A stretch of DNA of 63,942 nt, filler included, from Caldilineae bacterium (lineage in GTDB: Bacteria; Chloroflexota; Anaerolineae; DTLA01), in assembly GCA_037446815.1 (NCBI GenBank). It is 3 parts of 3 records of this genome, joined end to end, with 100 filler letters (N's around TTAATTAATTAA, not from the genome) between each part and the next. Parts side by side here need not be neighbours in the genome. Positions count along the whole stretch, not along the records: positions 1 to 28,885 come from JBBIHX010000025.1; 2 more parts are not named here. The stretch is one strand, 5' to 3'. The notes under the pieces were generated by a model. That model worked only from the letters and a program-made list of their open reading frames with translations, was not told the DNA's origin and made no database searches. The position numbers and the translations under genes are program-made. This document shows positions 3,976 to 29,025 of this stretch, piece by piece. Within the stretch, counting starts at the first letter, position 1. Every line of letters begins with the position of its first letter.

Positions 3976-3993
3976 ATCCGCACCCTCCGCGCG

Positions 3994-5386: not shown

Positions 5387-6598
5387 TTGCGCCTGAAACG
5401 ACTGACCCTGGTCAACTTCCGGAACTACAGCCGCCTGGAGATCGGCTTTGACCGCCCCCTCATCGTGCTGCAGGGGGACAACGCCCAGGGGAAAAGCAAC
5501 CTCCTGGAAGCGATCTACATGCTCGCCACCAGCAAATCGCCGCGCGCCACCAGCGAACGCGACCTGCTCAACTGGTTCGCCGACAGCGACCTCCAGCCCT
5601 ACGCCCGCATTGACGCCGAGATTGAGCGCGGCGAGCGCACCGAGCGCATAGAAATCACCGTCCTGCAGACCAACGGCGGGGCCAACGGCCCGACCGCCCG
5701 CAAGCAGATTCGCATCAACGGCGTGCCCCGTCGGGCGCTGGACCTGCTGGGCCACCTGAACGTGGTGCTGTTCGTGCCGCAGGATGTGGAACTGGTGGAC
5801 GGAAGCCCATCGGTGCGGCGGCGCTATCTGGACATCATGCTGTGCCAAATCAATCCGCGCTATTGCCGCATGCTGAGCGAATACACCCACGCCGTGGTGC
5901 AGCGCAGCCACCTCCTGCGCAGGCTGCGCGAGCGGGCTGGCGACCCCGCGCAGTTGACGTACTGGGACGAGGTGCTCGCCAGCAGAGGGGCCGAGGTGAT
6001 GGCCTGGCGTCGGCGGGCCGTCGTCGCGCTGGACCACCTGGCCGCCGCCACCCATCGCGAACTCACCAACGGGGGCGAGTTGCTCCGCATCACATACCGG
6101 CCCAGCCTGCCGCTCCCCGAGGCGCTTCAGCCGCCCCTGGGCCTGGAACTCGCCGTAGCGCCTGACGAGGTCGCGGGGATTCAAGCCCTGTTCACCGAGC
6201 GCCTGGCCCGCCTGCGCCCCGCCGAACTGCACCAGGGCGCCTGCCTGGTGGGGCCGCATCGGGACGATTTTCGGTTCCTGGCGAACGGACGCGACCTCCA
6301 GACCTTCGGGTCGCGCGGGCAGCAGCGCACCGCGGCCCTCTCGCTGAAGATTGCCGAGACGCACCTCATGCGCTCGGAGACGGGGGAGCATCCTGTCCTC
6401 CTGCTGGACGATGTCCTGTCCGAATTGGACAGCAAGCGCCGCGACTGCCTGCTGGAAGCGGTGAACGGCGTAGAGCAGGCGATTCTCACAACCACCGATT
6501 TGGCGCTGTTTCCGGCGGAGTTCCTCGCGCGGGCCGACTCCCTGCAGGTAACCGAGGGACGCATCCGGCGGCTAACGACGGGGAGCGAGTCCGAATGA
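5387..6598 (+). CDS. recF: DNA replication/repair protein RecF
   Basis: NFRNY, GDNAQGKSNLLEAI, GPHRDD, GSRGQQR, LLLDDVLSELD; TTG start with TGCTATAAT upstream. Confidence 0.97.
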   Translation: MRLKRLTLVNFRNYSRLEIGFDRPLIVLQGDNAQGKSNLLEAIYMLATSKSPRATSERDLLNWFADSDLQPYARIDAEIERGERTERIEITVLQTNGGANGPTARKQIRINGVPRRALDLLGHLNVVLFVPQDVELVDGSPSVRRRYLDIMLCQINPRYCRMLSEYTHAVVQRSHLLRRLRERAGDPAQLTYWDEVLASRGAEVMAWRRRAVVALDHLAAATHRELTNGGELLRITYRPSLPLPEALQPPLGLELAVAPDEVAGIQALFTERLARLRPAELHQGACLVGPHRDDFRFLANGRDLQTFGSRGQQRTAALSLKIAETHLMRSETGEHPVLLLDDVLSELDSKRRDCLLEAVNGVEQAILTTTDLALFPAEFLARADSLQVTEGRIRRLTTGSESE

Positions 6599-7182
6599 CC
6601 CCAGGGAGCAACCGCACCGAAGCCGAGGATATCGCCCTCCTGAGGGAGATTCGCGCCTTCGCGCGCGACCTCCAGCGTGCCGTGGCCCGGACGGCGTCGC
6701 AGGGGGCCGACGCGCGCCGCCGCGTCTCGGATTCGCCGGCCCGCGACCTGCTGGACGCCAACCTCGCTTGGGTCAAGCGGTTCCTGCTGGCCGACGCTCA
6801 GGCGCACCCCAAGTCGCCCGAGGACACCGGCCGCGAGGTCTACGCGCTGTGGCTCTTCGCGGCGTACATGGCGACCTACCAGGGGCTGTCGGTGCTGGAC
6901 ACCGACTTTGACGCGCTGTTTGAGTTCTTCTTCTGGTGGTACCCGCGCCAGTGCGCCGAAGCAAGCGCGGCGCTCACGGAGACGCTGTTCGGGGCGTTGC
7001 AGGCGTTCTTTCACTTCGCGGTGGATGAAGGGGCGCTGGCAGACACCCAGGCCGTGGACGACTTCTGGGCATACCGAGGCGACGCGCTGCGCCTCCTGGC
7101 GCTGTACGAGCAACTGGACCCGGATTCGCCCTATTTTGAAGAGCAGTTTGAGGCGCTCTTCGGCCTGGACCTGCCCGAGTGA
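6595..7182 (+). CDS. Hypothetical helical protein, translationally coupled to recF
   Basis: ATGA overlap with the recF stop; GC-rich codon pattern; ALQAFFHFAVDEG resembles recombinase core-binding helices. Confidence 0.65.
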   Translation: MTPGSNRTEAEDIALLREIRAFARDLQRAVARTASQGADARRRVSDSPARDLLDANLAWVKRFLLADAQAHPKSPEDTGREVYALWLFAAYMATYQGLSVLDTDFDALFEFFFWWYPRQCAEASAALTETLFGALQAFFHFAVDEGALADTQAVDDFWAYRGDALRLLALYEQLDPDSPYFEEQFEALFGLDLPE

Positions 7183-7189
7183 GGCGGGG

Positions 7190-7933
7190 CTACTTCAGCG
7201 GGCGCTTGGCGGGAATGCCCGGCCTGCGAGGATAGGCTTCGGGGGTGCTGGCAATCTTCCGCACGATGACCAGGCGGCGCTCCTCCACCAGCCCCGGCAA
7301 AGCGATCTTGATGATCTTCGCCAACTCCCCGCCCAGGATGCGGAATGCCCGCTCGGCCTGCGCCACCTCCGCCTCCGCCGTCTCACCCTTCATCGCCAGG
7401 ACGTAGCCGCCCAGGCGCGCAAACGGGAGCGTCAGTTCGGCCAGGGCCGGCATCTCGGCGACGGCGCGCGCCGCTACCCAGTCGTACTGCTCGCGGTGCG
7501 CCGCGTCTTTGGCCCAATCCTCCGCACGCCCGTGGAGAATCTCCAAATCGCCCAGCCCCAGCACCTGGCGCAGGTGCTCCAGGAACCGCACCTTCTTGCC
7601 CGTGGCCTCCAGGAGCGTTACCCGCCAGTGCGGGCAGACGATCCTCAGCGGGATGCCTGGGAATCCGGCGCCGCTCCCCACGTCCAGGAGTCGCAGCGGT
7701 GTGGCCCCTCGCGGAGCCTGCCCCAACATGGCGCCCACTTGCCGCATGGCGACGAGGCATGTCAGCGAATCCAGGAAGTGGCGAATCTCTATGTGTTCTT
7801 CCTGCGTAATGGCGGTCAGGTTGAACCGTTTGTTCCATTCCAAGAGTTCGCGGCGATAGGTCTGGAACGCCTGGACCTGCCTCGGCGAGAGGCGAATCCC
7901 CAGTTCTGCCGCATGGCGCACGAGAAGGTCCAC
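7190..7933 (-). CDS. rsmG: 16S rRNA m7G527 methyltransferase
   Basis: WNKRFNLTAI, HFLDSL, LDVGSGAGFPGIPL, GRAED, YPRRPGIPAKRPL; GTG start after CAGGAGG. Confidence 0.95.
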   Translation of the reverse strand: MDLLVRHAAELGIRLSPRQVQAFQTYRRELLEWNKRFNLTAITQEEHIEIRHFLDSLTCLVAMRQVGAMLGQAPRGATPLRLLDVGSGAGFPGIPLRIVCPHWRVTLLEATGKKVRFLEHLRQVLGLGDLEILHGRAEDWAKDAAHREQYDWVAARAVAEMPALAELTLPFARLGGYVLAMKGETAEAEVAQAERAFRILGGELAKIIKIALPGLVEERRLVIVRKIASTPEAYPRRPGIPAKRPLK

Positions 7934-7955
7934 ACTGCCCTCCTGTAGAGCCGCC

Positions 7956-9356
7956 TTACAGTTCCACCGTTTCGCCAGGCGTTGGCACGCGCACGTCGGG
8001 CACGCCCATCGCCCGAATGGCCTCGGCGAGGGAAAGGGATGCTGCTTCCTCGCCGTGGACGATGAACACCCTGCGCAGCCCTGTCCGCTGCACCTGCCGC
8101 ACGTAGCCCAGCAGTTCATCGCGGTCGGCATGGGCGCTGTAGCCGTCAATGGTCTCAATCGCCGCGCTGACTTTGTACTCCTCGCCGAAGATTCGGACGC
8201 GCTTCCACCCGTCCACAAGTTTGCGGCCCAGGGTGTTCTCGGCCTGGAATCCCACGAACAAGATGGTGTTGCGGGCGTCCTCTATGTTGTTCTTCAGATG
8301 GTGCAGGATTCGCCCCGCCTCGCACATGCCCGACGCGCTGATGATAATCGCCGGCTCCTTCAGCGCGTTGAGCGCCTTGGACTCCTCCACGTCGCGGACG
8401 TACTTCAGGCGGCGGAAACCGAACGCATCGTCCACATCGGCGCGCTCAATGAACGCATTGATTTCGCGGTCGTAGCATTCGGGGTGCAGGCGGAAGATTT
8501 CGGTAACGTTCACGGCCAGTGGGCTGTCCACGAAGATGGGGATATCGGGAATGCGGCCCGCCAGCGCCAGCCGGTGCAGGGCATACACCAACTCCTGCGT
8601 GCGCCCCACGGCGAAGGCGGGGATGATGACCTTGCCGCCGCGATGGGCCGTGTTGAGCACGACGCGGCGCAGTTGCTCCTCGGCATCCGCGGGGGTGTCG
8701 TGCGTGCGATTGCCGTAGGTGCTCTCCAGAATTAGGCAATCCACATCCTGCACCACGTAGGGATCGCGAAGGATGGGCAGATTGGGCCGCCCCAGGTCGC
8801 CGCTGTACACGATCTTCATCGCGCGGCCGTTCTCGCGCACGGCGATCTCCACCATCGCCGAGCCGAGGATATGCCCGGCGTCGCGAAACGTGGCGGTGGC
8901 CCCGTCGGCCAGCGGGATGGGCCGGTTGTAGCCCACGCCCGCGAAGTGTTCCACGGCACTCAGCGCATCCTCGTGGGAGTAGAGCGGGGCCAGCGGCGGC
9001 TCGCCCTTCCGCGCGCGCTTCTTGTTGACGTAGGCCACATCGGCGGCCAGCACGTGCGCCGAATCGCGGAGCATGGCGCTGCACAAATCCACGGTGGCGG
9101 GCGTCGCGTAGATGTGTCCCGCAAACCCCTCCCGCACCAGCGTGGGCAGGTTGCCGCTGTGGTCAATGTGCGCGTGCGAAAGGAGCACCGCATCCACATC
9201 GGCCGGCCTGAACTCAAAGCGTTGGTTGCGCTCAAAGAAGTCTTGCCGCCTGCCTTGAAACAGGCCGCAATCCAGGAGCACGGTCTTGCCGTTCACGTCT
9301 AGTCGGTGTTTGGCGCCGGTTACGCTGCGTACCGCGCCCAGAAATTGTATCTTCAT
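7956..9356 (-). CDS. MBL-fold beta-CASP RNA-metabolising metallohydrolase
   Basis: LDCGLFQG, SHAHIDHSG, AGHILGSA, ESTYG, SASGMCEAGRILHHL, YSAHAD, VHGE. Confidence 0.92.
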   Translation of the reverse strand: MKIQFLGAVRSVTGAKHRLDVNGKTVLLDCGLFQGRRQDFFERNQRFEFRPADVDAVLLSHAHIDHSGNLPTLVREGFAGHIYATPATVDLCSAMLRDSAHVLAADVAYVNKKRARKGEPPLAPLYSHEDALSAVEHFAGVGYNRPIPLADGATATFRDAGHILGSAMVEIAVRENGRAMKIVYSGDLGRPNLPILRDPYVVQDVDCLILESTYGNRTHDTPADAEEQLRRVVLNTAHRGGKVIIPAFAVGRTQELVYALHRLALAGRIPDIPIFVDSPLAVNVTEIFRLHPECYDREINAFIERADVDDAFGFRRLKYVRDVEESKALNALKEPAIIISASGMCEAGRILHHLKNNIEDARNTILFVGFQAENTLGRKLVDGWKRVRIFGEEYKVSAAIETIDGYSAHADRDELLGYVRQVQRTGLRRVFIVHGEEAASLSLAEAIRAMGVPDVRVPTPGETVEL

Positions 9357-9389
9357 CTCGCCTCGGCGTTTGTCGGGTCTGTGCGCGCT

Positions 9390-9418
9390 ATTATCCCAGA
9401 GAAGGCCCCTTCCGTCAA
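9390..9418 (-). promoter_or_regulatory. Putative promoter of the MBL-rsmG operon
   Basis: Minus strand TTGACG-17-GATAAT. Confidence 0.55.
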
Positions 9419-9875
9419 GCCCAAGCGCGACACGTTGTGCTTCGGCGAGGGCGGGTACACAATCCCTTGTGCTTAACGATAACGAGTCTTAAAACTCGGT
9501 GGGTTCGCAGTTTTAACACGATTTGCCCTTCCTAAAATCCGCAACCTGGTGTATCATGTAACCGCCGTAGAGATGGGCGGCAGGGGGCCTTCCAGGGAGA
9601 TGCTGGCGGGTGAGCGCGAACCCCGCAGCAGGCACGCGCAGACACAAGGCCGAACAAGGGTGTTCGCGTCCCCAAAAGCCGAAGGTGAGTCGCCCTCTCC
9701 ATTACCCGGTTCAACTCCTTCACAATCTTTGCCCGTGGTTTGCCGAAAACCGAATAGGAACTTCCCTGACCCCACCGGGCTCATGGAACTCTCAGCGGGC
9801 AGGCTGGCCCGGCGGGGTGTGGTTTCTTGCACCCTTTGGCCGGAACACAACCAACACTCTTCATAGCGCGTCCAT

Positions 9876-11273
9876 ATGACCAACACAACCGACCGTCAGG
9901 ACAAACTAACGCCCCTTGAGGCATGGCAGGCAACGCTTGGAGAACTGCAACTGCAGTTAGCGAAGTCAACCTTTGACGCGTGGTTGAAGGATACCACGCT
10001 GGTAGCCGCTGAAGACGGCGTCTACACCATCGGCGCGAGGAATTCCTACGCCCGCGACTGGCTGGACAACCGCATGCGCAGCCTCATCAAGCGGACGTTG
10101 GCGCGCATCGCGGGCCGCCAGGTGGACGTGCGCTTCATCGTGGACGCCAAGCCGGTGGAATCGCCCGCTCCCAGAGACCTCATCGGGTACGATCCCGCAG
10201 AGGAAGCGCCGGCCCAGGGCAACAAGCCCAACGGGCAATCGTGCGCCCTGAACCCTCGCTACACGTTTGAAACCTTCGTGGTAAGCGGCGGCAACCGCGT
10301 GCCGTTTGAAATCTCCAGGGCGGTGAGCGAGCGCCCAGGCGCGGCTTATAACCCGCTCTTCCTGTACGGCGGCGTGGGCCTGGGCAAGACCCACCTCCTG
10401 CACGCCATCGGCCTTAGCGCCGCCCGCCGCGGGCTGAACGTCCTCTATGCCCCGTCCGAGCAGTTCACCAACGACCTGGTATGCGCCATCCGCGCCCACA
10501 CAACCGAGGACTTCCGCAACAAGTACCGCGGCGTGGATGTGCTCCTGCTGGACGATGTCCAGTTCATCGCCGGCAAGGACTCCTCGCAGGAGGAGTTCTT
10601 CCACACGTTCAACGCCCTGCACAGCGCCAACCGCCAAATCGTCGTGGCCTGCGACCGCCCCCCGCGGGATGTGGTCGGCCTGGACGAACGTCTGCGCTCG
10701 CGGTTTGAAGGGGGCCTCGTGGTGGAGATCGCCCCGCCCGATTTCGCCGCCCGCATGGCCATCCTCCAGGCCAAGTCCGCCGCCAGAGACTGGCGCGTGC
10801 CCCAGGCCGTGCTGGAACTCATCGCCCAGACCGTGGAGACGAACGTGCGCGAGTTGGAGGGGGCGCTCAACCGCGTCATCGCCCAGTGGGAGGCGCTCCG
10901 ACAGCCCCCGACCGTGGAGACCACGCAGGCCATCCTGCGGGATATGCTCCCCTCCAGGGGGCGGCCTTCGCCGGAGGCCATCGTGCAGGAGGTGGCCGAC
11001 TACTTCGGCATCGCGCCCGAAGACCTGCTCGGGCCGTCCCGCAAGCAGCAAATCGCCATGCCGCGACAGATCGCCATGTACCTCCTGTGCGCGGAGACCG
11101 ACCTGTCGCTGGAGCAAATCGGCCTGTTCATGGGCAACCGCAATCACACCACCATCCTGCACGGTAGGAACAAGGTTCGCGCCCTCATGGAGACCGACCC
11201 CACCACGCGCCTGCACGTGCAGGCCATCCGAGAGCGGATGCGCCAGCCCACCGCCGCCCGCCAAATGGCGTAG
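9876..11273 (+). CDS. dnaA: Chromosomal replication initiator DnaA (or paralog)
   Basis: LNPRYTFETFV, YNPLFLYGGVGLGKTHL, LLLDDVQF, QEEFFHTFN, RLRSRF, NVRELEGAL, PRQIAMYL, RNHTTILH. Confidence 0.93.
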   Translation: MTNTTDRQDKLTPLEAWQATLGELQLQLAKSTFDAWLKDTTLVAAEDGVYTIGARNSYARDWLDNRMRSLIKRTLARIAGRQVDVRFIVDAKPVESPAPRDLIGYDPAEEAPAQGNKPNGQSCALNPRYTFETFVVSGGNRVPFEISRAVSERPGAAYNPLFLYGGVGLGKTHLLHAIGLSAARRGLNVLYAPSEQFTNDLVCAIRAHTTEDFRNKYRGVDVLLLDDVQFIAGKDSSQEEFFHTFNALHSANRQIVVACDRPPRDVVGLDERLRSRFEGGLVVEIAPPDFAARMAILQAKSAARDWRVPQAVLELIAQTVETNVRELEGALNRVIAQWEALRQPPTVETTQAILRDMLPSRGRPSPEAIVQEVADYFGIAPEDLLGPSRKQQIAMPRQIAMYLLCAETDLSLEQIGLFMGNRNHTTILHGRNKVRALMETDPTTRLHVQAIRERMRQPTAARQMA

Positions 11274-17746: not shown

Positions 17747-18523
17747 CTAGGGGAGCAGGCCCTTCGCCTGGGCCGAGAGGCGGACGATGGCCACGAAGTC
17801 CTGGGCCTTCAGGCTAGCGCCGCCGACCAGCGCGCCGTCTATGTCGGGCTGGCTCATGAACTCCACGATGTTGTCCGGCTTCACGCTCCCGCCGTACTGC
17901 ACCCGAACGCCGGAGGCTGCCTCGTCGCCGAACAGATGCCCGACGGTCTGCCTCACCGCGTCGCGAATCGTCGCGTTGGCGCCCTCGCCGGTGGCGGGCT
18001 TGCCCGTCCCGATGGCCCAGACCGGCTCGTAGGCGATGACGATGCCCGCCACCTGGTCGGCGGTCAGGCCGTCCAGCGCGCCGCGCACCTGGGCCTCCAC
18101 GACCTCCTGCGTCTGGCCCGCCTCGTTCTGGGCCAGGTTCTCGCCCACGCAGACGATGGGAATCAGCCCGTGGGCCAGCGCCGCCTTCACCTTGCGATTG
18201 ACGGTCTCGTCGGTTTCGCCGAAGTACTGCCGCCGCTCCGAGTGGCCCAGGATGACGTATCGGCAATACGGCTTGAGCATGAGGGGCGACACTTCGCCGG
18301 TGTACGCGCCCTCGTCTTTCCAGAACATGTCCTGCGCGCCCACGCCGATTGCGGAACCGCGCAGCGCCTCGGCCACGTTGGGCAGTGACAGGAACGGCGG
18401 GCAGACCACAATCTCAACCCCGCCGATGGCCTCAAGCCCGGGGCGCATGGCGTTGACCAGCGCGACCGACTCATCTACCGTCTTGTACATCTTCCAGTTG
18501 CCCGCGACAATCGGTGTTCGCAT
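17747..18523 (-). CDS. tpiA: Triosephosphate isomerase
   Basis: AGNWKM, GAYTGEVS, GHSERR, AYEPVWAIGTG, YGGSVK, GALVGGASL. Confidence 0.98.
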   Translation of the reverse strand: MRTPIVAGNWKMYKTVDESVALVNAMRPGLEAIGGVEIVVCPPFLSLPNVAEALRGSAIGVGAQDMFWKDEGAYTGEVSPLMLKPYCRYVILGHSERRQYFGETDETVNRKVKAALAHGLIPIVCVGENLAQNEAGQTQEVVEAQVRGALDGLTADQVAGIVIAYEPVWAIGTGKPATGEGANATIRDAVRQTVGHLFGDEAASGVRVQYGGSVKPDNIVEFMSQPDIDGALVGGASLKAQDFVAIVRLSAQAKGLLP

Positions 18524-18607
18524 GAGGTTACTCCTATCCGTGTGCTTGGCTTTCGGCCTATTATACGTAGCGGCGCGACGGCGTCCAACTTGAAGCGACG
18601 GTTGTTG

Positions 18608-18820
18608 CACCGCCGAGACACAGAGGGCGCAGAGAGCCTTTGATTTTATTCGTTCCTCTGCGTCCTCTCTGCCTCCGCGGTGCACAGGTTTCACCGCAGG
18701 GGAGCGGAGACCATCAGCGCGCGCAGAGAGACTTTGATTCTATTTGTTCCTCTGCGTCCTCTCTGCCTCTGCGGTGCACAGATTCTTACCGCAGGGGCCC
18801 GGAGGCCATCAGCGCGCGCA
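18608..18820. repeat. CGCAGAG/CTCTGCG-type repeat in a ~95-bp tandem duplication overlapping the nfo 3' end
   Basis: 18628-18727 and 18722-18820 are imperfect direct copies. Confidence 0.7.
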
Positions 18821-19656: not shown

Positions 19657-20055
19657 CTAGAACTCGCAGGGCTTGCCCGCCCAGTGGCGCTCCACCAGGG
19701 CGTCCAGCACCCTGCGCGCGCCCTCAAAGTGCGCCTGCATGTCCTCGGATTCCACGCCCAGCGCCGCGCTGAACGTGGGCCAGTCCACGTAGGCCAGTTC
19801 GCCCACGCGCCGACCGTGGATGAGGTGGCACAGCGTGTCGGCGGTAACGAACATCTCCGGGTCGCACATGCCGCACTCAAACTTGACCGCCTCAATCCGC
19901 TCGTCCACGATGCGGGCGTAGAGGTACAGGTGGTCTTTGCTCCCGCGGCACGCCAGCGCATCGGCGCAGACAGTGGCATCGGCCAGCCGCCCGAGATACG
20001 GGCTTGGCCCCGCGAAGATTTCACGGAACTTCTGGATGATGATCTTGTCCGACAT
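19657..20055 (-). CDS. Divergent SufU/NifU-N-like protein
   Basis: CRGSKDHLYLY...VKFECGMCDP layout matches the IscU/SufU fold; directly downstream of the SufS-like gene. Confidence 0.65.
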   Translation of the reverse strand: MSDKIIIQKFREIFAGPSPYLGRLADATVCADALACRGSKDHLYLYARIVDERIEAVKFECGMCDPEMFVTADTLCHLIHGRRVGELAYVDWPTFSAALGVESEDMQAHFEGARRVLDALVERHWAGKPCEF

Positions 20056-20081: not shown

Positions 20082-21353
20082 TCAGGACTCCCGCACGGGC
20101 AAGATGGGCAAGCCCTCAAACATGGGTTCGGAGAGGATTTCGCCCACCGTGTCCAGAAAGACCCTGCACTCGTCCAGCGTGTTGTACATGTACAGCGAGA
20201 CCCGCATGGCGGTAACGTTGCGGCTGATGCGGCGGGCATTGAACCATGCGTTGACGCAGAACATGCCGGCGCGCACCATGATGTTGCTGCGCTCGTCCAG
20301 CATGTCGGCCAGGAGTCCCAGTCCGGGCTTCTTGGTGAAGAGGCAGAGGATGCTGCCGCGCTTTTCCGGCTCTGGGGGGCCGATGATCTCAAACTCCTCA
20401 AACTGCGACAACCCGTCGGTGAGATACCGATTGAGCGCCACCTCGTGCTCGTGGAGGGCGTGCATGTCCAGGCGCTCCAGGTACTCCACCGCCGCGCCCG
20501 CGCCGATGCGCCCGGCGTAGTCCTGCAATCCGGCCTCGTACTTGTAGGGCGGGGGGAGGAACTCCGGCGGGCGGTCGGCCCACGTGTCGCGGATGGTGTC
20601 GCCGCCCACGAGGAAGTTGTCCATGTGGGCGTAGTGTTCGCGGCGCACGTACAGCGCGCCTACGCCGCTGGGACCGCACATCTTGTGCAGCGAGAAGGCC
20701 AGGTAGTCCACGCCCAGCGCCTGCACATCCACGCGCTGGTGCGGCACGCTCTGCGCCCCATCCAGCAGCACCTGCACCCCGCGCTCGTGGCACATGCGGA
20801 TAATCTCCTGCGCGGGGATTTCCACGCCGTCCAGGTTGGCCACGTGCCCGAAGGCGGCCAGTCGCACCCGCGGGTCTTTGAGCGCCGATTCCAGCGCATC
20901 CAGGTCAAAGGTGTTGTCCTCGCGCACGGGGACAACGCGGTGTTCTATGCCCATCTTAGCCGCCAGGTACTGCCACGGAACGAGGTTGGAATTGTGCTCC
21001 TTGTCGGTGGTGAGGACCACGTCCCCCCGCTGGAACGGGAACGTGCGGGCCACCAGGTTGATGCCCTCAGTGGTGTTGCGGGTAAAGATGATTTCGTCGG
21101 GGTGCGCGGCGTTGAGGAATCGGCGGATGCTTTCCCGCGCCGCTTCCACGCGCTCGTTAGTCTCCCGCGCGAACCAGTGATGGCTGCGGCCCGCGCCCCC
21201 ACAGGCGGGGAACTGGGTGTAGTAGGCGCACATGGCGTCAATCACGGGCCGCGGGCGCAGGGTCATGCAACTGTTGTCAAAGTATATCGGGGGCTTGCCG
21301 TTGCGCTCGCGGGCCAGCGGCTCAAAATCGGCACGGATTTGGCTCACGTCCAT
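20082..21353 (-). CDS. SufS-like cysteine desulfurase (class V PLP enzyme)
   Basis: IRADF, IYFDNS, FTRNTTEGIN, EHNSNLVPW, DGAQSVPH, FSLHKMCGPSG, RAGMFC. Confidence 0.88.
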   Translation of the reverse strand: MDVSQIRADFEPLARERNGKPPIYFDNSCMTLRPRPVIDAMCAYYTQFPACGGAGRSHHWFARETNERVEAARESIRRFLNAAHPDEIIFTRNTTEGINLVARTFPFQRGDVVLTTDKEHNSNLVPWQYLAAKMGIEHRVVPVREDNTFDLDALESALKDPRVRLAAFGHVANLDGVEIPAQEIIRMCHERGVQVLLDGAQSVPHQRVDVQALGVDYLAFSLHKMCGPSGVGALYVRREHYAHMDNFLVGGDTIRDTWADRPPEFLPPPYKYEAGLQDYAGRIGAGAAVEYLERLDMHALHEHEVALNRYLTDGLSQFEEFEIIGPPEPEKRGSILCLFTKKPGLGLLADMLDERSNIMVRAGMFCVNAWFNARRISRNVTAMRVSLYMYNTLDECRVFLDTVGEILSEPMFEGLPILPVRES

Positions 21354-21445
21354 CGTCTCATCTCCGAAACGTCGCGGCATGGCGTAGGCCCATTATAGCG
21401 CGCAGCGGCGCTCGCGGCAATATGGGCGGGGCGGGGCCTACCCCA

Positions 21446-21720
21446 TCACCCCCTGGCCCCCTTTTCCCCGCAGGCAGGGAAGAGGGGGAATGCCTGGCGC
21501 AACGTGCGACGCACCTGCGAGGTGCGTCGCACGTTTATTGGCGGTGGTGATACCCGTAGCGCCGGACTGAAGCCCCGCGCTACGGGCAGAAGCCCTTTCG
21601 GGGCTGACCGCCCGCAGGGCTTTGTGCCCTCAGCCCGATGCTTCAGCGTCGGGCGGCCCCACCCTTTGCCCAATCCGTGCCATCCGCGTCATCCGTGGAG
21701 GGACAACGTGCGTCGCGCGT
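21446..21720. repeat. Dense mosaic of four palindromic repeat types
   Basis: CACCCCCTGGCCCC hairpin; GTGCGACGCAC palindrome 21501-21535; GTAGCGCCGGACTGAAGCCCCGCGCTAC REP-like unit; CAATCCGTGCCATCCGCGTCATCCGTGG. Confidence 0.75.
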
Positions 21721-21725
21721 CATCG

Positions 21726-22511
21726 CTACAGGTATAACTCCGGCCGCAGACCCTGGGCCACGGGCAGCCGCCGCCGCGCCTTGGCTACCTCGCCAATGTC
21801 CACATCGGCGCGCAGGATTTCTTCCCCCTCGCCCGCCTCGGCCACGCGCTCGCCCCACGGCGAGGTAATCACCGAGCGCCCCGCCAGCGCCTCGCCGTTG
21901 CACAGGCCCACGCCATTGGCCCCGATGAGGAAGGCCAGGCTTTGCAGCGCCGTCGCCACGGTCAGGGTGCGCCAGTGCTCCCCCCGCGTCCGCGGCCACT
22001 GGGCGGCGACGAGCAGGAGTTCCGCCCCTTCGGCCATCATGCGCTGGAACAGGCCGGGGAAGCGCAGGTCATAGCAGATGGCGAGGCCCACGCGCCCGAG
22101 GCCCGTGGGCACGACGACAACCTCGCCGCCGGGGGTGAAGTAGGCCGGCTCGGCGAGCAGGGGAATCAGGTGCGCCTTGCGGTAGCGCGCCAGAAGTCTC
22201 CCCTCGGGCCCGGCCAGCGCCAGCGTGTTGTAGAACCGCTCGCCGTCGCGCTCGGCCATGCCCCAGGCCAGGTAGGCGCGGTACCGCGCGGCCAGGCCCG
22301 CCATCGTCGCGGTCGTTTCGCCGTCCATCGGCTCGGCCAGGGCAGGCAGGTTGGGCAGGTCATAGCCGCAGGTGGCGAGTTCCGGCAACACCACCACCTG
22401 CGCGCCCTCGTCCAAAGCCTGCCGCGCCAATTCGGCCATGCGGCGGCGGTTGCGGGCCAGGTCGCCCGCGGCAATCTCCATTTGCGCCGCGGCAACCCGA
22501 ACAACGGGCAT
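21726..22511 (-). CDS. Carbon-nitrogen hydrolase (nitrilase superfamily, YafV/Nit-like amidase)
   Basis: Catalytic triad motifs VVLPEL, YRKAHL, ICYDLRFP; GRSVITSPWG. Confidence 0.92.
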   Translation of the reverse strand: MPVVRVAAAQMEIAAGDLARNRRRMAELARQALDEGAQVVVLPELATCGYDLPNLPALAEPMDGETTATMAGLAARYRAYLAWGMAERDGERFYNTLALAGPEGRLLARYRKAHLIPLLAEPAYFTPGGEVVVVPTGLGRVGLAICYDLRFPGLFQRMMAEGAELLLVAAQWPRTRGEHWRTLTVATALQSLAFLIGANGVGLCNGEALAGRSVITSPWGERVAEAGEGEEILRADVDIGEVAKARRRLPVAQGLRPELYL

Positions 22512-22591
22512 AGTCCCCGCCTCCTCTCCAAGAACCGAGGCCAGGCCACAGGGGCAGCGCAGGTCGGCCCGCGCCCTGTGGCCCGTCGGTG

Positions 22592-24067
22592 CTACGGCGC
22601 GTACCGGAACGGATGCCGCGCCGCCTCTTTCTCCGCGACCAGTTCCTCGTAGGTCGGGCGGCCTTCCAGCGCCTTGCGAACCGCCGCCTTCATCGCCTTG
22701 AAGTTGTTGATGCGGACGCGGAAGCGGTTGCTGGCGCCCGGATGCACGAACACATTCGCGATGAGCACGATGTCGTCCAGCAGCGCCGCCGGCAGCGTGC
22801 CGTCCTTGACCAGCGCCTCCAGGGCCATGACAACGCCGCTCGCGGCGTGCTCGTACACGTTCTCGGCCTGGCGCTTCGTGCGCACCGTTACCGTGGGCAC
22901 GAGCAGCGTTCGCGGGCGCTCAAAGATGACACGCAGTTCGTGGCCCGGGCGCGGCTCGGCCAACGCCCGCGCGATGGCCTTCCCCACCGGGCCATCCTTG
23001 CGGCCGATGAGCAGGTCAATGTGGGCCAGTTCCGAGAACGGCGGGCCGGCGAACCCCTCGCCCACGAGGAGTGTCATGTCCCGCACCTCGCTCGGGGCGG
23101 CGGGCGGCTTTGGGAACTGGCTCGTTGCCGTCGGGCCGCCCGGGTACAGGTGGTACGTCATGGGGCGCGGCGGAATCTTGCCCAACTCCTCCAGGACGCC
23201 GCGCACCTCCTCGTAGTCCTCGCGGCGGAAGGCGTCGCCCTTCATCATGGGGTGGCGCGAATCGCCGATGGGAAGCCCCAGCAGTTGCAGCGCCTCCTTG
23301 ACCGCCTGGGTCGGGCCTTGCCGAGCCAGGATGCGGACGAATCGCTGGATGCGCGCCATGAGCGTCTGCGCCGTCGCCAGGTCGCCCGACAGGACGGCCT
23401 TGTAGATGGTCTGCCACACGTCGGGGATGACGTTGGCGCTGGCGAGGATGGCGCCGTCGGCCCCCATGGCCAACGCCGCCGGCACGATTTCGTCGTGGCC
23501 GGTGAAGATGCCGATCTTGCCGCGCACCTTCTCAAACACCGCCATCAGGTAGGGCATGTCGCCGCTGGAATCCTTGATGCCGACGACGTTCTCCAGATAG
23601 GCCATGCCCTCGGTCGTCCACCATTGATAATGGGTGCCCGCGCACTGGGGGATGTTGTACAGGATGAGCGGCACGCCCAGTTTGTTCAGCGCATCGTAGT
23701 GATCGTACACCTCGTTGAACGAAGGCTTCAGGTAGTAGGGCGCGGCAACCAGGGCAGCGGTAACGCCGGCATCCCGCGCCCACGCCGTCATCTTCACGGT
23801 CTCGCGGGTGGACGGGTAGGCGGTACCGGCGACGACCGGCACGCGCCCGTTGACCTCATCCAGGGCGATTTCAATGGCCCGCTTGCGCTCGTCCTCCAGC
23901 ATGTACACGAACTCGCCCGTGGTGCCGCAGGGGACGATGCCGTTGACATGGGGCAGGACGTAGCGGATGAGTTCTCGGTAGGCGGCCTCATCCACGCGGT
24001 CGTCCTTGGTGAAGGGCGTAACCAGGGCGGGGAAGATTCCTTTGAACCAGTCGGGTTTCTTGGACAT
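22592..24067 (-). CDS. DapA/NAL-family aldolase fused to a C-terminal formaldehyde-activating enzyme (Fae) domain (copy B)
   Basis: N-term ALVTPF, CGTTGEF, PYY, LYNIP, GIKDSSG; C-term (about 22592-23077) LVGEGFAG, ELAHIDLLIG, GPVG, VFVHP, NFKAMKAAVRKALEGRP, RHPF as in Fae. Confidence 0.85.
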   Translation of the reverse strand: MSKKPDWFKGIFPALVTPFTKDDRVDEAAYRELIRYVLPHVNGIVPCGTTGEFVYMLEDERKRAIEIALDEVNGRVPVVAGTAYPSTRETVKMTAWARDAGVTAALVAAPYYLKPSFNEVYDHYDALNKLGVPLILYNIPQCAGTHYQWWTTEGMAYLENVVGIKDSSGDMPYLMAVFEKVRGKIGIFTGHDEIVPAALAMGADGAILASANVIPDVWQTIYKAVLSGDLATAQTLMARIQRFVRILARQGPTQAVKEALQLLGLPIGDSRHPMMKGDAFRREDYEEVRGVLEELGKIPPRPMTYHLYPGGPTATSQFPKPPAAPSEVRDMTLLVGEGFAGPPFSELAHIDLLIGRKDGPVGKAIARALAEPRPGHELRVIFERPRTLLVPTVTVRTKRQAENVYEHAASGVVMALEALVKDGTLPAALLDDIVLIANVFVHPGASNRFRVRINNFKAMKAAVRKALEGRPTYEELVAEKEAARHPFRYAP

Positions 24068-24093
24068 GGGTCTCTCCTTCTACCTGATGTGCC

Positions 24094-25515
24094 TCACGCG
24101 CCGAATGCCTGGCGGATGGCAGCGCCTGCCGCGGCAAGCACCGCCTGGTACAGGGCGTGGCGATCCAGGGCCTTGGGATGCACGCTGGCCTGCACCAGCA
24201 TCACGTGCGTGTCCATGGCGGATTTGGGAATGACGCCCTCTTCCAGCGCGTCTACGATGGCGCGGGCTACTGCTGCCTGGGTCGGGCCGTAAATCATGTT
24301 GGCCTGGCGCAGGTTCCGCAGTTCCGCCGTCGGGACGATGAGCGTGGACGGTCGCACGGTGAGATTCGGCTCCAGGATGGTGGTCAGCGCCTCGTAGCCG
24401 TGGCGCGGGTAGGTGAGTTGCAGGGCGAACACTTCGCCGACGATGCCGTCCTTCGGCCCGGCGATGAGGTCTACTTGGACGTTTTCCGGCTCGGCGCCCG
24501 CCGCTCCGGTACCCACGCGCAGCGACTCTGCCCGCACCTGCTGGGGCGAGATGCCCAGCGCGCCGAACCGCTCGGCGACAGGCCCGGTCGGCGGCGCATA
24601 GGCGCTGTCTTCGGAGTCAATCTTGCCCAGGCGCTCCAGTTCCAACTGAATCTCGGCCCGGTCCTCGTGGGTGAGGCTTCCGCCCACCTTCAGCGGTCGC
24701 CGCGCCTGGCCCACGGGAATCCCCATCATGTTCAGCGCCTGCTTGACGGCCAGCCCGCCCCCGTAGCGGCAGAAGATGCGCGACAGTTTCTGCACGCTCC
24801 GTTGCAGGGCGCGGGCCTCCTCAATGCGGCCCTCCTGGACGGCGGCGTAGACCTTCTGCCACACCTCGGGGTAAACGTTGGCGCTGGCCAGAATCATGCC
24901 GGTGCACCCGCCCGCCAGCGCAGGCAGCACCACCTCGTCGTGGCCGATGAACACGTCAATGCGCCCCTGCACCATCTCCAAGATTTCCATGGTGTAGGTG
25001 AGGTTGCCCGATGAGTCCTTGATGCCCACGATGTTCGGGATCTCCGATAGGTCCTCCACGACGTTGCGCGGCAGGTAGGCGTCCACCACCTGCGGGATGT
25101 TGTACAGCAGGATGGGGAGGTCCACCGCCATCGCCACATCGTAGAAATGCTGGTAGATGCCCTTGTCGGACGGGTGGAGGAAGAAGGGCGTAACGACAAG
25201 GCAGGCGTTGGCTCCGGCATCTTTCGCGTTGCGGGCCAGGAGAATCGTCTCCTTGGTGCCGGCGGCGCCCGTTCCGGCGATGACCGGCTTGCGGCCCGCG
25301 ACTTCGTCCACGACGATGGAGATGACGCGCTTCTGCTCGTCGGGCGTCATGTACGGGAACTCGCCCGTGGTGCCGCAGGGGACAAACCCGTCCACATGGG
25401 GCAGGAGGTGGCGCACCAACGCGCGCAGCGCCGATTCGTCCACCTCTTCGTCTTTGGTAAATGGCGTTACCAGCGCGGGGAAGACGCCCCGCAGCCACGG
25501 CAGTTTTGCAGGCAT
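24094..25515 (-). CDS. DapA/NAL-family aldolase fused to a degenerate Fae domain (copy A)
   Basis: N-term ALVTPF, CGTTGEF, LYNIP, GIKDSSG; C-term (about 24094-24522) VDLIAGPKDG, EPNLTVRPSTLIVP, RQANMIYGPTQAAVARAIVDALEEGVIP. Confidence 0.85.
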   Translation of the reverse strand: MPAKLPWLRGVFPALVTPFTKDEEVDESALRALVRHLLPHVDGFVPCGTTGEFPYMTPDEQKRVISIVVDEVAGRKPVIAGTGAAGTKETILLARNAKDAGANACLVVTPFFLHPSDKGIYQHFYDVAMAVDLPILLYNIPQVVDAYLPRNVVEDLSEIPNIVGIKDSSGNLTYTMEILEMVQGRIDVFIGHDEVVLPALAGGCTGMILASANVYPEVWQKVYAAVQEGRIEEARALQRSVQKLSRIFCRYGGGLAVKQALNMMGIPVGQARRPLKVGGSLTHEDRAEIQLELERLGKIDSEDSAYAPPTGPVAERFGALGISPQQVRAESLRVGTGAAGAEPENVQVDLIAGPKDGIVGEVFALQLTYPRHGYEALTTILEPNLTVRPSTLIVPTAELRNLRQANMIYGPTQAAVARAIVDALEEGVIPKSAMDTHVMLVQASVHPKALDRHALYQAVLAAAGAAIRQAFGA

Positions 25516-25624
25516 TCAACAACCTCCGTAGTAGGGTTCGCGGGACGCGCGGGCCAGCACCGCCGCCCCATGCGGTCGGCAGCGCCGGAATCCCGCGCGC
25601 TCCTTGCGGATGACTTGTGCCGGG

Positions 25625-26575
25625 TTACGGCTTCGGGATGGCCAGGCCCTTGCAGCCCTGCTTGGAGAGGATGAGGTCGGGCTGGTTCTCCTGAATCAGG
25701 GTGTGGATAATCTCGGCGTACTTCACCTTCTCGCGGGCGAAGTCGGCGAGGGCCTGCGGGCTGGTCCACGGCTTGTACAGCGCCCCAGGCCCGGCGGCGC
25801 AGGCCGGCCCAGGCTCTATCTTGAAGTAGCACGGCGCGCAAACCCGCGCCATCTCGGCCCCGTCGTAGAACCGATTGTACCCGCCAAAGGACTCGGCCAG
25901 ATAGATGTGCAGGTCCATCGGGATGTCCACCGCCTGGCGGATGGAGGCCAGTTGCGGCAGGCTCAGGTCGCCGACGGGGTTGAACGTCCCCGCGCCCAGC
26001 GACTGGAGCACCTTGCCGCCGGCGGCCGAGGCGTGCCCCGCGTAGATGGAAACCTTGAACGTTACGTCCTCCGGAATCTCCCCGGCCTTGCGGAGTTCGT
26101 TCAGGAGCCAGAGGAGGCCCTCATCAATCACGAGAAAGCCGCGGAAGCCGATCTCAATGCACGTGAGAATGTCGGTGATGACGTAGCGGAGTTGATCGGA
26201 GCCGCGGAAGCGGAGGCCGGAGAGGCCGCCCTCGGGCGTTACCACTTGCCGACCCACATCCCACGCCGCACGCGGCCCAGGGGTGAGAATGACCTCCAAC
26301 TTGTTCTCGGCGGCGATTTGGGCGAAATCGCGGAGTTCCGCCCGATCCAGGAGCGTGGCGCCCATGACTACGGAGATGACACGGTGGATGGGGATTTTGC
26401 GCCGGTTCATCTCATCAACAAGCGCTTCCAGAACGTTGGGGCGCTCCACGCCGGAGATCTCCATGCGGTAGTGGGCGCCATCGGGGAAGCGCTTGGGGCT
26501 AGATGGAAGGTCGTAGGCGTCCCGTCCGGGGATGCCCACCCGCTCCATCATCTTGGCGACGCGATCCATATTCAT
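25625..26575 (-). CDS. U32-peptidase-like protein of unknown function
   Basis: SPKRFPDGAHYRMEISGVE and IGFRGFLVIDEGLL recall a family usually annotated U32; RBS AAGGAGG. Confidence 0.55.
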   Translation of the reverse strand: MNMDRVAKMMERVGIPGRDAYDLPSSPKRFPDGAHYRMEISGVERPNVLEALVDEMNRRKIPIHRVISVVMGATLLDRAELRDFAQIAAENKLEVILTPGPRAAWDVGRQVVTPEGGLSGLRFRGSDQLRYVITDILTCIEIGFRGFLVIDEGLLWLLNELRKAGEIPEDVTFKVSIYAGHASAAGGKVLQSLGAGTFNPVGDLSLPQLASIRQAVDIPMDLHIYLAESFGGYNRFYDGAEMARVCAPCYFKIEPGPACAAGPGALYKPWTSPQALADFAREKVKYAEIIHTLIQENQPDLILSKQGCKGLAIPKP

Positions 26576-26661
26576 TTGTCAACCCTCCTTCGCAATATTG
26601 ACTGGCCTCTTTGCCGCAAATTCCCGCGGAGGTAAGGAAAAGGAACACAACGTTCGGGCGC

Positions 26662-26690
26662 AGTATACCATGCCCGATGGGGTGTGTCAA
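26662..26690 (-). promoter_or_regulatory. Promoter of the U32-like / aldolase-Fae / amidase cluster
   Basis: Minus strand TTGACA-17-TATACT with extended TG. Confidence 0.65.
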
Positions 26691-26715
26691 TCTGAATAGG
26701 TGGGGGTGGCGTGCG

Positions 26716-26862
26716 CGGTTCCAAAGTCTGTTGGCATCTACCGTCATTCTGAGCGGCGAAGCCGCGAAGAATCTCGCTGCCCGAGATGCTTCGCCTTCGG
26801 CTCAGCATGACAGAGTGGGGAGGCGGCGCGCGGGGCAGACCAACACAAGATGGAACCGAATC
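26716..26862. mobile_element. MITE-like element with GTCATTCTGAGC...CTCAGCATGAC cargo
   Basis: CGGTTCCAAAGTCTGTTGG left end; CAAGATGGAACCGAATC right end. Confidence 0.65.
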
Positions 26863-26907
26863 AGGTGGGGGGGTGGCGTGCGCGGTTCTATTCTGTGTCG
26901 GTGAGCA

Positions 26908-27120
26908 AGGTGCGACGCACTTCCGGAAGTGCGTCGCACCTGTAAGAACCGCACCGATGCGCTACGCAGCATACCATGGGGGCGAGGGGTGTCAATCCGC
27001 GATGCGCGGGGCAGCACCAGAACCGCGAATAACACGAATCCACGCGAATGGGGAACGTGCGATGCACCTCCGAGGTGCGTCGCACGTTGTCTACCCACGG
27101 ATGACACGGATTGCACGGGT
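26908..27120. repeat. Palindrome cluster
   Basis: GTGCGACGCAC palindromes at 26908-26941 and 27054-27088; CGCGAATAACACGAAT and CCACGGATGACACGGAT units. Confidence 0.75.
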
Positions 27121-27162
27121 GGCGCGCATAGATGCCGTTCGGGTTCACGGCGCACCCGAAGT

Positions 27163-27314
27163 GGATTCGGTTCCAAAGTCCGTTGGTACCCGTCATTGCG
27201 AGGGCACGCAGTGCCCGAAGCAATCCCCGGGGCGTGGGATTGCTTCGCTTCGCTCGCAATGACACACGAGGCGAGTGCGCCTACGGTTCACCAACACAAA
27301 ATGGAACCGAATCC
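27163..27314. mobile_element. MITE-like element with GTCATTGCGAG...CTCGCAATGAC cargo
   Basis: Perfect 13-bp TIRs GGATTCGGTTCCA / TGGAACCGAATCC. Confidence 0.7.
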
Positions 27315-27343
27315 CGAAGCGGCAACCTGTCCGCACGCAGAGG

Positions 27344-28711
27344 CTATTTGCTGGCGTTTCGGCTCTGTACCCACGCGGCGATGTCGTCCACCACCTCGCG
27401 GGCGACGTTGCCAGCCACGTCATATTCGGCCGGATTGGGCGCGCCGCTCCCCGGCATGAACAGGTGGTTGAGATTGGGGTAGGACTTGAACTGCACGTCG
27501 CCGCGCTGCCCAAGCCCCGCCTGCCACGCGGCGAAGTTCTCCATGGTAACCTGGTAATCCCGCTCGCCCTGCAAGATGAGCATGGGCATCGCCAGCGACC
27601 GCGCGGTCGCGACCGGGTCGTAGGCCAGGATGTCGGCCCAGTACGCCTTGCCCGCGCCCAGAATCACCTCGCCCTCGCCGAAATCCAGCGCCTTGACCCG
27701 CTCCACCTGCGTGCGGAGTTGGTCCAGCGCCTGCGCCTCCTCGGCCGCAACCGTGCCGTCCAGGGCGGCCAGATACTCGCTCTGCTCCAGCATCAGGTCG
27801 GCCAGGTTGCGGTTGCTGGCGGCCAGGAGAATCAGCCCGGCCAGGCGCGGGTCGCGGGCACCGATGCGCGGGGCCACGGTCCCGCCCAGGCTGTGCCCCA
27901 GGATGAATATCCGATTCGGGTCAATGCCGCGCACGCCGCGAAGGTACTCCACGGCTGCCAGCGCGTCGTTCACGACCTCCTCGTTGACCGTGAGCGTAGC
28001 CATGGACTGAATCATCTGCGCGGGGCACTGCTTGGTGCGCTTCTCGTACCGCAGGACGGCAACCCCCCGCGTGGCAAGCCCCCAGGCCAAGTCCTTGAAC
28101 GGCTTGTTGGGGCCGATGGTCTCGTCGCAGTCGTTAGGCCCCGAGCCATGCACGAGGACAATCGCCGGGAAGGGGCCGGAGCCCTTGGGCATCGTCAGCG
28201 TGGCCGGAAGGGGGCAGTCGCCGTCGGCGATTTGCGCCTCCGTCTCCGAGAAAGCGGCGGGATCGGCGTAATCCGGCGCTCTTCAAGTGCCCCCGCTTCC
28301 GGGCGGCACGAACCACAGCCCTGCGATGCGCCCTTGGGCGTCAAAGACAACTTTCATGTCCAGCGGGTTGCGCGCGAAGTCGCAGGCTACATAGGCGATG
28401 CGATAGCCCGCCTCCTGCGCCATGCGCACCTCCTTGATGCCCTGGAGCGCGCCCACGTTGCGGATGACTTCCTCCCACGTGGCTTTGAGTTTGGCGACCG
28501 GGAACGCCGCCGCCATCTGCGGGTCAAACATGGCCGCCGCCTCGGCGTATTTGCCCTCTTGGAGCAAGGCCGTGAAGTAGCGGGCCGCCGCCTCCAAGTC
28601 GCCCGATGGGGGCGTGGGCGCGGGGGTGGGCGAAGGCGTGGCCTTGGGAGCGCAGGCGCCCAACAGCATCCCCAAGGCCAAAAGCGAAGCAACCATCCAC
28701 CATCGTCTCAT
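27344..28711 (-). pseudogene. Lipoprotein alpha/beta hydrolase (DUF3887-like N-domain) interrupted by one in-frame TGA
   Basis: ORFs 28283-28711 and 27344-28192 share a frame; reads GLWFVPPGSGGT*RAPDYADP...HGSGP...GHSLGG...QGERDYQV...LNHLF. Confidence 0.8.
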
Positions 28712-28802
28712 CGCGCATCCTCCTCATGGACTGCTGAAGCATGGCTTCAGCAGCACAGACCATTGTGCCATATGCCGCCCCCCGCGTCAAAGCGGCAAGA
28801 TA

Positions 28803-28885
28803 GATTCGGTTTCAAACTGTGGTGGCATCCACCGTCATTCTGAGCGGCGAAGCCGCGAAGAATCTCGCCCCTCACCCCAGCCCTC
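28803..28885. repeat. Left part of a MITE-like element, truncated by the contig end
   Basis: GATTCGGTTTCAAAC...GTCATTCTGAGCGGCGAAGCCGCGAAGAATCTC...CCCTCACCCCAGCCCTC. Confidence 0.7.
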
Positions 28886-28985
28886 NNNNNNNNNNNNNNN
28901 NNNNNNNNNNNNNNNNNNNNNNNNNNNNNTTAATTAATTAANNNNNNNNNNNNNNNNNNNNNNNNNNNNNNNNNNNNNNNNNNNN
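28886..28985. other. Artificial contig linker
   Basis: 100 bp of N with a central TTAATTAATTAA (stops in all frames). Confidence 0.97.
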
Positions 28986-28997
28986 AAGCGTCGCGAT

Positions 28998-29025
28998 TTG
29001 ACATTGCGGCATGTGCACCTATAAT
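28998..29025 (+). promoter_or_regulatory. Putative promoter
   Basis: TTGACA-16-TATAAT. Confidence 0.6.

Follow-up and report, generated by a model that had tools for sequence, protein, structure and literature searches.

Two adjacent aldolase–Fae fusion genes of a Caldilineae bacterium probably encode the subunits of one uncharacterised heteromeric enzyme

What kind of enzyme is encoded when two neighbouring, paralogous genes each join a complete class I aldolase barrel to a C-terminal domain resembling the formaldehyde-activating enzyme (Fae)? This question is raised by a stretch of 63,942 nucleotides, filler included, from a Caldilineae bacterium (GenBank assembly GCA_037446815.1), hereafter the window, in which a first-pass annotation had pointed out such a pair of genes, here called fusion A and fusion B, as a candidate undescribed one-carbon (C1) module. 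Sequence comparison and complex prediction suggest that A and B are probably subunits of one heteromeric, uncharacterised enzyme with a composite Fae-like site. The features on which this reading is built are the following:

22592-24067, minus strand: fusion A, 491 amino acids (aa), with a DHDPS-family aldolase domain at aa 8-278 (about 23234-24046) and a full-length Fae-like domain at aa 335-487 (about 22607-23065).
24094-25515, minus strand: fusion B, 473 aa, with a DHDPS-family aldolase domain at aa 8-289 (about 24649-25494) and a truncated Fae-like domain at aa 335-471 (about 24103-24513).
23015-23023, minus strand: H349-I-D351 of A, within 'AHIDLLIG' ('AHIDLIIG' in solved Fae), placed by alignment to 1Y5Y; H349 and D351 are invariant in A-type rows and both lie in the predicted A-B interface.
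24469-24477, minus strand: Q347-V-D349 of B, with an invariant Gln replacing His, placed by alignment to 1Y5Y; Q347 and D349 are invariant in B-type rows.

The presence of paired aldolase-Fae fusion genes is confirmed and far beyond chance. Pfam places DHDPS and Fae within the limits given above in both proteins (E 5.5e-71 and 3.4e-34 in A, 2.8e-73 and 8.4e-36 in B), and the Fae assignment holds at curated cut-offs, with scores of 118.6 and 123.8 bits for Pfam Fae (PF08714; cut-off 27) and of 130.4 and 120.4 for A and B with NCBIfam one_C_fae (TIGR03126; cut-off 118.05). The two proteins are 44% identical over 474 residues, which is their whole length (E 3e-130). The author of the first-pass annotation knew of no characterised enzyme with this architecture, and a literature search likewise found no paper on a DHDPS-Fae fusion, nor on U32 combined with PanB.

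In solved Fae the pterin/formaldehyde site sits between neighbouring subunits; the Fae of Methylorubrum extorquens is a homopentamer with its tetrahydromethanopterin (H4MPT) site between subunits. When A and B are aligned to this enzyme (1Y5Y), their Fae-like domains are seen, at the level of sequence, to have decayed in complementary ways. A keeps 'AHIDLLIG' and the C-terminal '...HPF' and has lost the central 'HGF', 'PNL' and 'GPAQ', where a deletion is found, while B keeps the central segments ('RHGY', 'EPNLTVRP' and 'RQANMIYGPTQ'), reads 'VQVDLIAG' with Gln for His, and ends about 20 residues short of Fae, at profile position 138 of 159. Neither chain alone therefore holds the His-x-Asp, the central motifs and the C-terminal segment of a complete Fae. 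The retained parts are conserved within each paralog: A-type rows show no variation at H349, D351 and R484-H485-P486 and keep 'ARHP..YAP', and in B-type rows Q347, D349, Q366-T368-Y369-P370 and R403-P411 are invariant, as are 8 of the 10 positions of I380-P389, with the motifs 'QLTYP', 'ILEP.LTVRP' and 'LRQANMIYGP.Q' kept. Prediction of a complex between the two Fae domains gave a score of 0.90 against 0.35 for the best control and passed a mark that 58 of 80 solved complexes reach, as do 2 of 110 mismatched pairs, a pass that may simply mirror likeness to Fae and is no proof of binding, because a Fae homo-oligomer (the homopentamer) has already been solved. Contacts agreed between runs by at least 88%, the pLDDT (predicted local distance difference test) of the partner was at least 87, and the confidently predicted interface (A 349, 351 and 483-488; B 367-373, 380-388, 406, 410 and 413) contains precisely the paralog-specific residues.

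The same losses, namely those of the His and the C-terminal part of Fae from B and of the central motifs from A, could also be taken to mean that the Fae-like domains are non-catalytic and serve to oligomerise or regulate an ordinary aldolase or dehydratase that depends on pyruvate and acts on a sugar acid or hydroxy-oxoacid, and the neighbouring genes, which are mostly housekeeping genes and vary between loci (CTP synthase, transaldolase, RuvB and others), would agree with such a role. On the other hand, the retained residues are invariant in each paralog, complement one another and fall at the predicted A-B interface, which is the pattern of a conserved composite site and not of a scaffold, and we consider the non-catalytic explanation unlikely.

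The reading of A and B as one enzyme also draws on how the two genes are distributed. Genome-level statements rest on relatives of the window, the nearest of which (G001) encodes proteins 94% identical to B, 98% to A and 99% to U316, the product of a third gene described below. Of the 7996 candidates scored in a homolog search with B as query, 3818 had E<=0.001, and each of the 120 homologs listed carries DHDPS and Fae, under names from metagenome-assembled genomes (MAGs) of Chloroflexota/Anaerolineae. A scan of species-representative genomes found 121 loci, nearly all in MAGs of Anaerolineae or other Chloroflexota and two labelled Thermodesulfobacteriota, and 80 of these loci were used for the locus counts. 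In the class sample, made up of 300 genomes from the class to which the nearest relative belongs, Fae matches are present in 68 genomes, with exactly two in 63, one in 5 and more in none; of the two matches in a pair, one covers the full length and the second stops at about profile position 140. Stand-alone Fae was not found in this sample, all Fae matches being in the 68 pair-bearing genomes. In 65/80 loci A comes after B in the same orientation, in 60 of them within 1 kb, and seven loci are too short to show whether A follows. A and B are ancient paralogs that occur one-to-one, and it is because of this one-to-one occurrence, the B-then-A order and the complementary motifs at the predicted interface that they are read as subunits of one enzyme.

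The aldolase domains offer a first indication of the chemistry involved. The codons of their Schiff-base lysines, computed from the ends of the open reading frames (ORFs), fall at the positions that the first-pass annotation had given:

23573-23575, minus strand: codon of Schiff-base Lys K165 of A (GIKDSSG), invariant in 42 A-type rows and aligned with the DapA Lys motif.
25018-25020, minus strand: codon of Schiff-base Lys K166 of B (GIKDSSG), invariant in 42 B-type rows and aligned with the DapA Lys motif.

GTTGEF and YNIPQ are, like this lysine, invariant in the 42-row ortholog alignments of both paralogs, and in 57 A-type and 70 B-type orthologs the motifs GTTGEF, YNIPQ, K-D-x-S-G and GHDE are conserved. 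Alignment to solved DapA chains shows that A and B hold the DapA catalytic residues, that is the Schiff-base Lys, the Tyr of YN(V/I)P and the Thr of GTTGE, and that the Arg of DapA 'YNVPgRt', five residues past the catalytic Tyr, is replaced by Cys in A (YNIPQCAG) and by Val in B (YNIPQVVD). The Tyr-Tyr of DapA ('tpyynkp') is kept in A and is Phe-Phe in B.

Public records name the proteins of relatives '4-hydroxy-tetrahydrodipicolinate synthase' (DapA), and that one or both genes are the genuine DapA of the organism would be in line with the score of B against the dapA equivalog TIGR00674 (230.0 bits, above the cut-off of 206.15) and with the finding that the two fusions are the sole dapA-model matches in two relatives, G001 and G005. 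Yet the Arg of 'YNVPgRt' is the residue that binds aspartate semialdehyde and is missing from both proteins, A falls below the dapA cut-off at 199.4 bits, and DapB (TIGR00036) was found above cut-off in 0/5 pair-bearing relatives. The earlier judgement that these are unlikely to be true DapA is thus borne out, a genuine DapA being extremely improbable here, and the lysine-pathway label on the A/B family is wrong.

If the aldolase acts together with a Fae-like site, the nature of the C1 carrier has to be addressed. The first-pass annotation had proposed a pyruvate aldolase that releases or fixes formaldehyde (e.g. 4-hydroxy-2-oxobutanoate <-> pyruvate + HCHO) and hands it on to, or receives it from, methylene-H4MPT. 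In favour of this are the Fae domains that exceed the one_C_fae cut-off, the restriction of every Fae match in the class sample to pair-bearing genomes, and the occurrence of the H4MPT-linked enzyme MCH in 26/300 class-sample genomes, two copies in some, which shows that H4MPT-linked C1 genes exist in part of the class and are somewhat enriched with the pair (11/68 pair-bearing vs 15/232 other genomes). Against it, 57/68 pair-bearing genomes have no MCH match, nor have the nearest relatives of the window, G001 and G006, and profile searches in which methanogen controls were positive found MCH in 0/5, FTR in 0/5 and beta-RFAP synthase above cut-off in 0/5 pair-bearing relatives. The folate C1 enzymes SHMT and FolD are present in 5/5 of these relatives. 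The H4MPT link is consequently unsupported for this lineage and the proposal as a whole is very doubtful; its coupling of a keto-acid aldolase to a formaldehyde-level C1 unit is still the best chemistry, while the channelling through methylene-H4MPT is the part without support here.

The SHMT of these relatives deserves a separate remark. In G001 (contig C78, L091:2954-6562) it lies inside an ORF of 1202 aa together with two GCV_T (aminomethyltransferase) stretches and GCV_T_C, and in all five relatives (G001-G005) the open frames around the SHMT match span 1108-1242 aa, aside from a second, 348-aa SHMT match in G004. By its domain matches this ORF looks like an SHMT-GcvT fusion.

A third conserved gene precedes B in the window and is described by the following two features:

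25625-26575, minus strand: U316, a TIM-barrel protein of 316 aa, distantly U32/CutC-like, and the first gene of the U316-B-A unit.
26662-26690, minus strand: a promoter-like site (TTGACA, 17 nt spacer, TATACT, upstream TG) some 87 nt before the start of U316, found by consensus scan alone.

The U316 protein of the window has no Pfam match (E<=0.01), and members of its family, which counts about 860 cluster representatives at E<=0.001, give weak matches to PF01136 Peptidase_U32 at E<=1 in 27/35 cases, with a best value of 2.4e-8. Its AlphaFold2 model is a confident TIM barrel (pLDDT 94.5), for which CutC (Z 15.0), the U32 protein Mk0906 (Z 14.2) and also class II aldolases are retrieved as fold matches; as this list is flat, with Z still 12.2 at rank 50, U316 can be claimed as a generic barrel only. 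U32 hydroxylases are iron-sulfur (Fe-S) enzymes, and the U316 family has no conserved Cys. Metagenome context of distant U316 relatives gave nothing for P0140 and, for P0122, one 1.4-kb locus with no informative neighbour.

The conservation of U316 exceeds that of the fusions (72-81% identity where B has about 65-72%), and the gene stands directly upstream of B in 21/80 loci. Orthologs, defined as a best match at least 55% identical (58 genomes; 23 genomes with a best match of 35-45% were dropped as presumed paralogs), occur in 48/68 pair-bearing and 10/232 pair-less genomes. In nine loci without U316 its position is held by U422, a very conserved protein of 422 aa with remote homology to U316 (hhalign probability 68.8%, E 4.5e-5, in a 151-column alignment that takes in the 'FK(I/V)S...NP' motif). 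U422 is present in 15/20 pair-bearing genomes that lack U316, so that 63/68 pair-bearing genomes have one or the other. ESM Atlas and PDB sequence searches found nothing for U422, and its AlphaFold2 model is poor (pLDDT 57). A protein of 425 aa upstream of B in four loci (cluster 19) was considered as a U422 relative and turned out to be unrelated, without a Pfam match.

Some further observations concern the surroundings of U316. A second U316 paralog, 35-45% identical, lies elsewhere in many genomes (e.g. G001:C102:1749-2630). Upstream of U316 in the window is an intergenic stretch of about 770 bp (26576-27343), without an Rfam match, that contains minus-strand promoter-like sites at 26690-26662 and 26995-26968; two such sites by consensus scan against 0.8 expected are no evidence of function. 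In two pair-less genomes an ORF of 219-221 aa without a Pfam match is found downstream of U316 (L083:6041-6700 and L087:214-879), and in L083 it stands between U316 and PanB.

The strongest functional clue is provided by genomes in which the barrel gene has a different neighbour, for the place next to this gene is taken either by the B-A pair or by a PanB paralog. Within the class sample 178 genomes are PanB-positive (weak rows in G078, G085, G104 and G252 were dropped), and the pair and PanB are negatively associated, PanB being present in 20/68 pair-bearing and 158/232 pair-less genomes (odds ratio 0.195); among the five pair-bearing relatives PanB is found in two and PanC in one. All U316 genomes except one (57/58) have the pair or PanB, the exception being G034, where the ORF downstream of U316 is a nitroreductase-family gene. 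PanB is present in 9/10 U316 genomes without the pair, and in these ten it is adjacent to U316 in three (L081, L082 and L085), separated by one gene in L083 and 3.5 kb away in L084. U422 behaves in the same manner: it was found in 15/80 pair-less genomes tested, all 15 with PanB, which it directly adjoins in 8, and three of the other seven stretches stop at contig ends.

A tree of 32 PanB sequences divides into two deep clades (split support 100/98). All 13 barrel-adjacent PanBs belong to one of them (18 rows), and the other (14 rows) holds the PanBs beside PanE or PanC; each of the four genomes represented by two PanBs (G063, G072, G211 and G024) has one in each clade, with the other-clade copy beside PanE. 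The 13 barrel-adjacent PanBs alone form no clade (p-AU 0.0006), because five non-adjacent PanBs of pair-bearing genomes nest among them. Measured against these results, the first-pass description of a module of two fusion genes was right about the fusions and missed that they are, by the alignments, complementary halves of one probable enzyme, that a third conserved gene accompanies them and that elsewhere a PanB paralog fills the same slot.

It could be concluded from the shared slot beside U316/U422 and from the negative association with PanB that the pair is a straight replacement of PanB, making 2-dehydropantoate from 2-oxoisovalerate for the synthesis of pantothenate and coenzyme A (CoA). 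The rest of the pantothenate route speaks against this. PanC is found in 3/68 pair-bearing vs 112/232 other genomes, and in 2/58 U316 genomes; archaeal PPS was found in 0/45 pair-bearing genomes tested; and the PanE family, not found in G001 or G006, does not track the pair, being no commoner in genomes with the pair and without PanB (28/48) than in those with neither (48/74). The barrel-adjacent PanBs, moreover, belong to a clade separate from that of the PanBs in PanB-PanE(-PanC) clusters. CoaX (type III pantothenate kinase) is present in 5/5 relatives, and because of this the uptake of pantothenate would suffice. With PanC and PPS nearly always missing, pantothenate as the pathway product is not supported by the slot data alone, and a straight replacement is judged to be distinctly unlikely.

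Independently of the pair, PanC has no match in 64/178 PanB-bearing genomes of the class, several of which (e.g. G049, G107 and G168) have PanB beside PanE, and PPS was not found in these three; the class may hold an undescribed pantoate-consuming step.

The reading that we tentatively prefer is that A and B form a heteromeric aldolase/Fae-like enzyme that would transfer a C1 unit in the manner of PanB, using a reduced pterin (in this lineage most likely tetrahydrofolate) and acting with U316/U422 in a PanC-independent pathway; on the sequences and models at hand this is a plausible account, held with some reserve. The 2-oxoacid would be held as a Schiff base on the class I aldolase lysine, and its C3 enamine would receive or give up the C1 unit. 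The pterin/formaldehyde site would be rebuilt only at the A-B interface, from His349, Asp351 and the C-terminal 'ARHPF' tail of A together with 'QLTYP', 'ILEPNLTVRP' and 'LRQANMIYGPxQ' of B, and a C1 unit at the formaldehyde level would be moved there between the reduced pterin and the C3 enamine of the 2-oxoacid. The pterin would most likely be methylene-tetrahydrofolate, the lineage being H4MPT-less and folate-using, and candidate oxoacids are pyruvate, 2-oxobutanoate and 2-oxoisovalerate, in either direction of the reaction. The net chemistry would then be a PanB-type hydroxymethyl transfer performed by non-homologous machinery, and the enzyme would work with U316, or with its remote relative U422, in a pathway other than the classical PanB-PanE-PanC pantothenate route. 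The sharing of one slot by a PanB paralog and B-A is compatible with a lysine-bound 2-oxoacid enamine attacking a pterin-held formaldehyde-level C1 unit. A more specific version, that U316/U422-B-A is an undescribed pathway module in which the class I aldolase and the composite Fae-like pterin site jointly serve as a non-homologous analogue of a PanB-type hydroxymethyltransferase and feed a PanC-independent route, leading to a compound that derives from pantoate or is a CoA precursor, or else to a different 2-oxoacid extended by C1, is possible and rather doubtful.

Several points count against this preferred reading. Solved DHDPS-family enzymes have been described with pyruvate as donor, and folate and formaldehyde react spontaneously, so that it is less evident why a Fae-like catalyst would be required. 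The enrichment of MCH with the pair is mild (odds ratio 2.8, p 0.024, no phylogeny correction), and because of it some pair-bearing lineages, a minority, may have H4MPT as their carrier. The pair and PanB coexist in the 20 pair-bearing genomes mentioned above and are thus not mutually exclusive, and of the 12 PanBs from pair-bearing genomes on the tree, 5 fall in the barrel-associated clade. U316 orthologs are missing in 20/68 pair-bearing genomes and U422 is also missing in 5 of those, and in 8/80 loci B is followed by at least 1.6 kb of sequence without A. Finally, the association counts (Fisher tests) were run over related genomes, so that their p-values overstate independence.

The surroundings of the U316-B-A unit in the window are of a housekeeping kind and include dnaN, recF and dnaA (3953-11273) and tpiA (17747-18694). 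The close grouping of dnaN, recF and dnaA makes it probable that the region of the chromosomal replication origin falls inside the window, along which the cumulative GC skew is lowest at about 22-34 kb. Downstream of A are a CN-hydrolase gene and a class V aminotransferase gene, which adjoin the pair in no loci other than those of the closest relatives (L001-L003 for the former, L002 and L003 for the latter); with adjacency so limited, both were excluded as members of the unit. Between the class V aminotransferase gene and an endonuclease IV-like gene there is an ORF of 132 aa (19657-20055, minus strand) that has no Pfam match and is conserved in L002 and L003; at a guess, its product could be a small partner protein for the aminotransferase, resembling an Fe-S scaffold. 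A search for riboswitch and other RNA families in 21000-29000 returned nothing credible, with two matches at E about 0.9.

The pair is common in Anaerolineae, as the 68 of 300 class-sample genomes and the 3818 homologs at E<=0.001 indicate, and the annotation of the A/B family as DapA distorts the metabolic reconstructions of a major bacterial group of sediments and sludge. If the proposed mechanism is true, the pair would represent a new mode of pterin-dependent C1 transfer to a keto acid, in which a Schiff-base aldolase is combined with a Fae-type site split evolutionarily over two subunits, and it would suggest an undescribed pathway in which a PanB paralog and a conserved barrel protein also take part. 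A gap in the class has come to light as well, namely the lack of PanC in 64 of the 178 PanB-bearing genomes surveyed.

Determining how this system relates to known ones helps to delimit what is new in it. DapA/DHDPS (TIGR00674) is the nearest sequence family of the N-terminal domains, which retain its Thr, Tyr and Lys catalytic motifs; unlike DapA, both A and B have lost the substrate-binding Arg and carry an extra C-terminal domain, B has Phe-Phe for Tyr-Tyr, and the relatives have no DapB match. Peptidase U32/CutC-like barrels are approached by U316 through the weak PF01136 matches of 27/35 family members and through CutC and Mk0906 among its fold matches, whereas the U316 of the window is without a Pfam match and its family, in contrast to the Fe-S U32 hydroxylases, is without a conserved Cys. 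The Fae of M. extorquens (1Y5Y/1Y60) is a sequence homolog (69.5 and 78.2 bits), from which A retains 'AHIDL(L/I)IG' and the C-terminal 'HPF'; it is a stand-alone protein, whereas in the A/B pair neither paralog holds every motif. Fae-Hps of methanogens (NF009833) resembles the fusions in joining Fae to a formaldehyde-handling aldolase-type barrel, and A and B match positions 2-161 of the 392 in its model, which is the Fae part. Only these positions are matched, however, with 89.4 and 111.1 bits for A and B, far under the cut-off of 274; the partner domain here is of the DHDPS family and not Hps, Fae is C-terminal here and N-terminal in NF009833, and two genes with complementary degenerate Fae halves are found in a host lineage without H4MPT gene matches. 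PanB (PF02548), lastly, has no sequence relationship to A and B, in which Pfam recognises DHDPS and Fae only, and it is metal-dependent, whereas the pair would use a Schiff-base lysine; the analogy is one of proposed function and of genomic position, since PanB carries out the chemistry proposed here, the transfer of a C1 unit from a methylene-pterin to a 2-oxoacid, and a PanB paralog fills the place beside U316/U422 in pair-less genomes.

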